From a phage: DNA of 499 nucleotides. The stretch lies in sequence record EF517072.1, one strand, 5' to 3'. Under the pieces are notes generated by a model. It was not told the DNA's origin and ran no database searches. It saw only the letters and a program-made list of their open reading frames with translations. Position 1 is the stretch's first letter. Each line of letters starts with the position of its first letter. The position numbers and the translations under genes were made by a program. Of this stretch, positions 3 through 499 are shown one piece after another.

Positions 3-239
3 CAGGCAATCTTAGAGAAAGATATGCTGCATCTATGTAAGCAGGTCGGCTCAGGTGCGATTGTCCCCAATGGTAAACAGAAGGAAATGATTGTCCAGTT
101 CCTGACACACGGTATGGAAGGATTGATGACATTCGTAGTACGTACATCATTTCGTGAGGCCATTAAGGACATGCACGAAGAGTATGCAGATAAGGACTCT
201 TTCAAACAATCTCCTGCAACAGTACAAGAGGTGTTCTGA
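3..239 (+). CDS. 5.5: Gene 5.5 protein (H-NS-binding host-takeover protein), 5'-truncated by the window edge; C-terminal ~78 codons plus TGA stop
   Basis: Frame 3 is open from the window edge (codons from nt 3: Q-A-I-L-E-K-D, then MLHLCKQVGSGAIVPNGKQKEMIVQFLTHGMEGLMTFVVRTSFREAIKDMHEEYADKDSFKQSPATVQEVF) to TGA at 237-239. The ATG at 24 is therefore internal, not the start. The stop overlaps the ATG of the next gene (TGATG), and the position immediately upstream of the recognisable gene 5.7 and 5.9 matches T7 gene order. Inferred total length of about 99 aa fits T7 gp5.5 if roughly 20 codons lie upstream of the window. Assignment is by synteny and partial sequence recollection. Confidence 0.8.
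   Translation, partial: QAILEKDMLHLCKQVGSGAIVPNGKQKEMIVQFLTHGMEGLMTFVVRTSFREAIKDMHEEYADKDSFKQSPATVQEVF
228..233 (+). promoter_or_regulatory. Ribosome-binding site (Shine-Dalgarno GAGGTG) for gene 5.7, embedded in the 3' end of gene 5.5
   Basis: AAGAGGTG at 226-233 is complementary to the 16S rRNA 3' end, with a 5-nt spacer (ttctg) before ATG 239. Confidence 0.7.
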
Positions 240-448
240 TGTCTGACTACCTGAAAGTGCTGCAAGCAATCAAAAGTTGCCCTAAGACTTTCCAGTCCAA
301 CTATGTACGGAACAATGCGAGCCTCGTAGCGGAGGCCGCTTCCCGTGGTCACATCTCGTGTCTGACTACTAGTGGACGTAACGGTGGCGCTTGGGAAATC
401 ACTGCTTCCGGTACTCGTTTTCTGAAACGAATGGGAGGATGTGTCTAA
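239..448 (+). CDS. 5.7: Gene 5.7 protein, 69 aa; small inhibitor of host sigma-S-containing RNA polymerase
   Basis: Complete ORF from ATG 239 to TAA 446-448, translating to MSDYLKVLQAIKSCPKTFQSNYVRNNASLVAEAASRGHISCLTTSGRNGGAWEITASGTRFLKRMGGCV, which I recognise as T7 gp5.7. A Shine-Dalgarno GAGGTG at 228-233 lies 5 nt upstream of the ATG. The start overlaps the upstream stop and the stop overlaps the downstream start by one nucleotide each. Confidence 0.9.
   Translation: MSDYLKVLQAIKSCPKTFQSNYVRNNASLVAEAASRGHISCLTTSGRNGGAWEITASGTRFLKRMGGCV
433..439 (+). promoter_or_regulatory. Ribosome-binding site (Shine-Dalgarno GGGAGGA) for gene 5.9, embedded in the 3' end of gene 5.7
   Basis: GGGAGGA at 433-439 with an 8-nt spacer (tgtgtcta) before ATG 448. 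The motif also encodes the Gly-Gly of the gp5.7 C-terminus (MGGCV). Confidence 0.75.
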
Positions 449-499
449 TGTCTCGTGACCTTGTAACTATTCCACGCGATGTGTGGAACGATATACAGA
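448..499 (+). CDS. 5.9: Gene 5.9 protein (RecBCD nuclease inhibitor, DNA mimic), 3'-truncated by the window edge; first 17 codons only
   Basis: ATG at 448 followed by an open frame to the window end, translating to MSRDLVTIPRDVWNDIQ, which matches the N-terminus of T7 gp5.9 as I recall it. A strong Shine-Dalgarno GGGAGGA at 433-439 lies 8 nt upstream. The start overlaps the gene 5.7 stop (TAATG). Confidence 0.85.
   Translation, partial: MSRDLVTIPRDVWNDIQ

Follow-up and report, generated by a model that had tools for sequence, protein, structure and literature searches.

The annotation of gene 5.9 in bacteriophage T7 goes back to the genome sequence of 1983. Its product, gp5.9, has been purified, and cryo-EM structures have been determined on two targets, RecBCD (8B1R) and MukEF (9GMB/9GMD). 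On the first of these, gp5.9 prevents RecBCD from binding to DNA (Wilkinson et al., 2022; PMC9836394). The protein is a parallel coiled-coil homodimer in which a short antiparallel β-sheet braces the N-termini apart, and it carries many Asp and Glu residues on its surface (PMC9836394; PDB 8B1R); an N-terminal tag lowers inhibition (PMC9836394). In the complex, ion pairs made by gp5.9 replace the contacts with DNA phosphates (PMC9836394, Table 1): D4 pairs with R561 of RecB, D11 with R761 of RecB and R1068 of RecC, and D15 with R822 of RecB and R1068 of RecC (8B1R; PMC9836394).

Other activities of gp5.9 have also been described. It is an inhibitor of MukBEF, it kills cells carrying retron Ec48, which guards RecBCD, when it is expressed in them, and it activates a type III Sir2-HerA system (PMC13434337). 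Because of these further interactions the role of gp5.9 is wider than RecBCD inhibition, and the inhibitory role assigned in the original prediction to a frame beginning at position 448 of the DNA studied here is correct, but no longer the whole of gp5.9 activity.

The start of gene 5.9 and its surroundings

The DNA that we analysed is a stretch of 499 nucleotides, hereafter the window, with the following features.

3..239, plus strand: C-terminal 78 codons and stop of gene 5.5, encoding an H-NS-binding protein (Pfam PF11247, E = 3.6e-53)
239..448, plus strand: gene 5.7, complete, 69 aa (open reading frame, alignment, PHROG 1334)
433..439, plus strand: putative Shine-Dalgarno sequence GGGAGGA for gene 5.9, within the 3' end of gene 5.7 (from the consensus)
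446..450, plus strand: TAATG overlap between the gene 5.7 stop (TAA, 446-448) and the gene 5.9 ATG (448-450) (list of open reading frames, translation)
448..499, plus strand: 5' part of gene 5.9, 17 codons (MSRDLVTIPRDVWNDIQ) and the first base of codon 18 (translation, T7 alignment, T7 annotation)
465, plus strand: G to A relative to T7 in gp5.9 codon 6, GTG to GTA, Val, synonymous (alignment)
499, plus strand: G to A relative to T7 in the first position of gp5.9 codon 18; T7 has GGC (Gly) (alignment)

A megablast search of 50,697 phage records matched the window to bacteriophage T7 at 493 of 499 bases (99.0% identity, E = 0), and the T7 genes beneath the match are 5.5, 5.7 and 5.9, in the same order. 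The T7 record V01146 has "gene 5.9, inhibits host recBCD nuclease" beginning at the base equivalent to window 448, between gene 5.7, itself preceded by gene 5.5, and the exonuclease gene 6. Translation of 448-498 on the plus strand, from the ATG at 448-450, gives MSRDLVTIPRDVWNDIQ, exactly the peptide that had been reported for this frame, and the frame stays open up to the end of the window. Aligned with T7 gp5.9, it is identical at all 17 residues (residues 1-17 of the T7 protein), so that the recognition of a gp5.9 N-terminus holds at the level of protein, gene order and nucleotide sequence alike.

The full T7 gp5.9 (UniProt P20406) is MSRDLVTIPRDVWNDIQGYIDSLERENDSLKNQLMEADEYVAELEEKLNGTS. 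Its 52 residues, with a pI of 4.1 and 13 Asp and Glu against 5 Lys and Arg, bear out the earlier description of a small acidic protein. It scores 27.8 bits against Pfam PF25708, "Phage T7 gp5.9 RecBCD inhibitor" (curated gathering cut-off, 24.5 bits), matches PHROG 9014 with E = 5.6e-40, and is matched along its full length by PDB chains 8b1r_P and 9gmb_I. The original prediction had also pointed out that the window holds 17 codons only, and 35 of the 52 codons do lie beyond its end. The visible 17 residues include 3 Asp and 2 Arg (pI 4.4), with 10 of the 13 acidic residues of T7 gp5.9 further downstream; judged by the T7 structure, this stretch encodes the N-terminal β-strand and, of the helix, no more than its first turns. 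The RecBCD contact residues D4, D11 and D15 are nevertheless all encoded in 448-498. From residue 18 onwards, the expected T7-like remainder is approximately (S/x)YIDSLERENDSLKNQLMEADEYVAELEEKLNGTS, with codons 19-52 outside the window and base 499 the sole base of codon 18 inside it.

The position of the gene is conserved too, as gene 5.5 and a T7-identical gene 5.7 lie directly upstream on the same strand. Gene 5.7 of the window encodes exactly the T7 protein, since both of its base changes, C361T and C418T, are synonymous; the same gp5.7 is found on many T7-like contigs (10 returned), and a 52-aa gp5.9 gene comes after it each time. Downstream, gene 6 follows gp5.9 in 8 of 8 annotated relatives and in 10 of 10 metagenomic or assembly contigs, a position that here lies beyond the window. 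In gp5.5 we found one amino acid difference from T7, R96Q (CGG to CAA), produced by the adjacent transitions G226A and G227A. This residue lies four residues before the gp5.5 C-terminus and about 10 nt upstream of the gene 5.5 stop and gene 5.7 start; a "possible gene 5.5-5.7" frameshift fusion is annotated in the T7 record near the same site.

At the junction of genes 5.7 and 5.9 a single base (A 448) is common to the stop of one and the start of the other, exactly as in T7 (V01146), and the spacing from GGAGG (434-438) to the gene 5.9 ATG is 9 nt. Such a TAATG arrangement is typical of translational coupling, and we infer that gene 5.9 is coupled to gene 5.7 in this way. The upstream junction has a similar form: TGATG (237-241) joins genes 5.5 and 5.7, again by a one-base overlap of stop and start. 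Taken together, the two one-base overlaps suggest that genes 5.5, 5.7 and 5.9 may be translated as one coupled unit.

We conclude, with a probability of roughly 0.96, that 448-499 holds the beginning of gene 5.9, either from T7 or from a very close derivative of it, and that the gene product is a DNA-mimic RecBCD inhibitor, as originally proposed. For this reading the identity, gene order, start context and contact residues come from the present analysis, and for the fold, the target and the way in which RecBCD is inhibited we rely on published studies of T7 gp5.9. The start of T7 gene 5.9 and the DNA-mimic inhibitor that it encodes are already known and structurally characterised; a real gene was recognised from 17 codons, and biology gains nothing new.

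Differences from T7 and the source phage

T7 gp5.9 and the window agree in residues 1-17, in the start position, in the TAATG overlap, in the ribosome-binding site and in genes 5.5 and 5.7; they differ in the synonymous G465A of codon 6 and in the first base of codon 18 (A in the window, G in T7). Relatives are further away. The gp5.9 orthologues of phages 13a, NC-A, YpP-Y, 3A_8767, EG1 and CQ615 and of metagenomic relatives (Teseptimavirus) have 52 aa and the same synteny as T7, but most Teseptimavirus orthologues have Met16, and many have MVRDT...A12, whereas the window has the T7-specific S2, L5, V12 and Ile16. The next closest lineage to the window is phage 13a, at 93.8% identity. From these T7-specific states, and from the distance to the next lineage, it follows that the window comes from T7 itself or from a direct derivative.

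Six bases of the window differ from T7: G226A, G227A, C361T, C418T, G465A and G499A. Each of these is a G:C to A:T transition (four G to A, two C to T), and their density is 1.2%. In six natural relatives the G:C to A:T share among differences from T7 is 24%, and against this background six of six has a probability of about 2e-4. We therefore reject the window as a natural T7 sister species, on this probability and on the 93.8% identity of the next lineage.

The same one-directional pattern is found in laboratory lines. Isolate P82 (AY264778) differs from T7 at 12 sites over 959 nt spanning genes 5.5 to 6 (1.25%), and all 12 differences are G:C to A:T; in isolates K and P the changes in genes 5.5-5.9 are likewise all G:C to A:T, if two ambiguous N calls in K are set aside. 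The T7 isolates K, K115, P and P82 of Bull et al. 2003 (AY264775-AY264778) were reportedly made with a chemical mutagen. PMC8923235 cites this paper and gives an account of T7 populations mutagenised with nitrosoguanidine by Springman et al. (2010). Because the one-directional G:C to A:T signature of the window matches that of the published mutagenised T7 lines, the window probably derives from a T7 line that was chemically mutagenised independently of them, and for a T7 derivative with such a load the small differences are most likely the product of mutagenesis rather than of natural variation. The window is not published isolate K, P or P82 itself: its six changes include no mutated site of these three isolates, and it must therefore come from a different line. 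The comparison covered K, P and P82; for K115 the sequence retrieved begins in gene 6.

Sequence collections returned no second copy of these variants. Exact-pattern scans for the variant-bearing stretches were negative in IMG/VR, JGI metagenomes and GTDB genomes, megablast of the variant-bearing sub-regions against phage records gave nothing better than wild-type T7, and the window variants are absent from all 10 T7-like contigs encoding the identical gp5.7. The six differences may alternatively reflect deamination damage or deliberate sequence alteration.

Two of the differences fall in gene 5.9. An A at the equivalent of 465 occurs naturally in phages 3A_8767, EG1 and CQ615. At the equivalent of 499, T7 has G, as do all 18 further full-length sequences retrieved as loci, and the codon specifies Gly (GGC or GGT) in each. 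With A at base 499, residue 18 cannot be Gly, and would be Ser (AGC) provided that the other two bases of the codon are those of T7. Ser at this position has natural precedent, since the family alignment has Ser18 in clusters P0007 and P0008; cluster P0010 has Glu. The idea that Gly18 is essential is not supported, given Ser and Glu at this position in natural homologues. By our own heptad assignment, which puts W13, I16, I20, L23, N27, L30 and L34 at a and d positions, residue 18 would occupy an outward-facing f position. The loss of Gly18 and the one-directional spectrum are both minor points, and laboratory mutagenesis is their simplest explanation.

Integrity of gene 5.9 beyond the window

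With 17 of 52 codons within the window, we infer an intact 52-codon gene 5.9 in the source phage. Among relatives this is the rule: the gene has 52 codons in 19 of 19 full-length sequences fetched as loci, and only line K (W13*) has it interrupted, which leaves 18 with an open frame. It is very unlikely that the N-terminus is intact here and that a nonsense or other disabling mutation follows downstream, as in heavily mutagenised laboratory T7 lines. What speaks for such a break is that the six of six G:C to A:T changes at 1.2% are the signature of mutagenised isolates P, P82 and K, and that in K the W13* codon, at the equivalent of window 486, interrupts gp5.9, the record saying only "similar to gene 5.9"; this loss suggests that gene 5.9 is dispensable for laboratory passage. 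Isolates P and P82, however, retain an intact wild-type gp5.9. In the window, codons 1-17 offer three sites for a stop by G:C to A:T change, two of them in W13 and the third in Q17, and none has been hit. T7 codons 18-52 contain a single stop-capable site of this kind, Q33. G/C sites in the window are mutated at a rate of 2.5%, which puts a stop at Q33 at about 2.5% and an absence of downstream nonsense codons at about 97.5%; some 0.7 additional missense changes would be expected there.

In the record of isolate K (AY264775; locus L020, 807-1174) nonsense codons are found in both gene 5.7 and gene 5.9, each annotated only as "similar to" its T7 counterpart, which suggests that T7 can be passaged in the laboratory without either.

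The source could be an unpublished or unindexed mutagenised T7 line in which a gp5.9 with a residue other than Gly at position 18 (probably G18S), alone or together with downstream changes, alters the host complexes engaged; we regard this as a long shot. If true, a G18S variant might, for example, bind MukBEF less well or be a poorer trigger of Ec48 or Sir2-HerA, with RecBCD inhibition kept.

The probability is negligible that the frame at 448 is a chance open reading frame or some other feature (a non-coding RNA, a promoter or an opposite-strand gene) with a coincidental resemblance to gp5.9: short frames like the 17 visible codons are common by chance, and a mechanical 116-aa open reading frame does run along the minus strand at 2-352, but that frame lies opposite annotated genes 5.5 and 5.7 and stops short of 448-499, the T7 nucleotide match extends across the window with E = 0 and the same gene order, and the T7 alignment, the annotation and the 17 of 17 residues refute such a reading in practice. 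Searches for other features agree, with no match to Rfam families in the window at E up to 1 and no T7 promoter consensus in the window within 3 mismatches; one sigma-70-like and one terminator-like site were found, at the level expected by chance from shuffled sequence, and both are far from 448-499.

Action of gp5.9 and comparison with its relatives

Read as the start of gene 5.9, the locus fits a simple scheme. The gene would be read from the class II (DNA-metabolism) transcripts of T7 RNA polymerase, and ribosomes would probably either reinitiate at the TAATG shared with gene 5.7 or be recruited by the GGAGG that lies nine bases before the start. The predicted product would be a very acidic protein of 52 aa, two copies of which would form a parallel coiled coil with a short β-sheet at the N-termini as a brace. 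On its surface, Asp and Glu residues would stand in for the phosphates at the end of a DNA duplex, and the dimer would thus occupy the DNA-binding site of RecBCD, at the RecB arm and the RecB/RecC core; the phosphate mimics encoded in the window, D4, D11 and D15, would bind near the core. Access of RecBCD to the linear phage genome, and to the intermediates of its replication, would thereby be blocked. Occupation of the RecBCD DNA-binding site, which the original prediction had put forward, is established for the T7 protein by cryo-EM and biochemistry (PMC9836394).

Across the family sampled, the alignment has D4, V6, T7, R10 and D11 invariant, and all five residues are present in the window. 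Unusual gene calls in this block occur in some T7-like contigs. ENA assembly ERZ28582848, scaffold_336 (locus L010, 1031-1501) has a 156-aa gp5.5 product and an HNH endonuclease gene inserted upstream of it. The gp5.9 of Escherichia phage HZP2 (P0003) is called at 82 aa, with a 30-residue N-terminal extension, probably from a mis-called start.

Outside this family, gp5.9 can be compared with Gam of phage lambda. Like gp5.9, Gam mimics DNA and competes with it for its binding site on RecBCD, as a small, acidic, helical protein that forms dimers (PMC9836394), and it too triggers retron Ec48. In contrast to these shared properties, Gam has no detectable sequence homology to gp5.9, adopts a different fold and uses another subset of RecBCD contacts (PMC9836394). 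Lambda Gam is a functional analogue of gp5.9 that stands outside the gp5.9 family.
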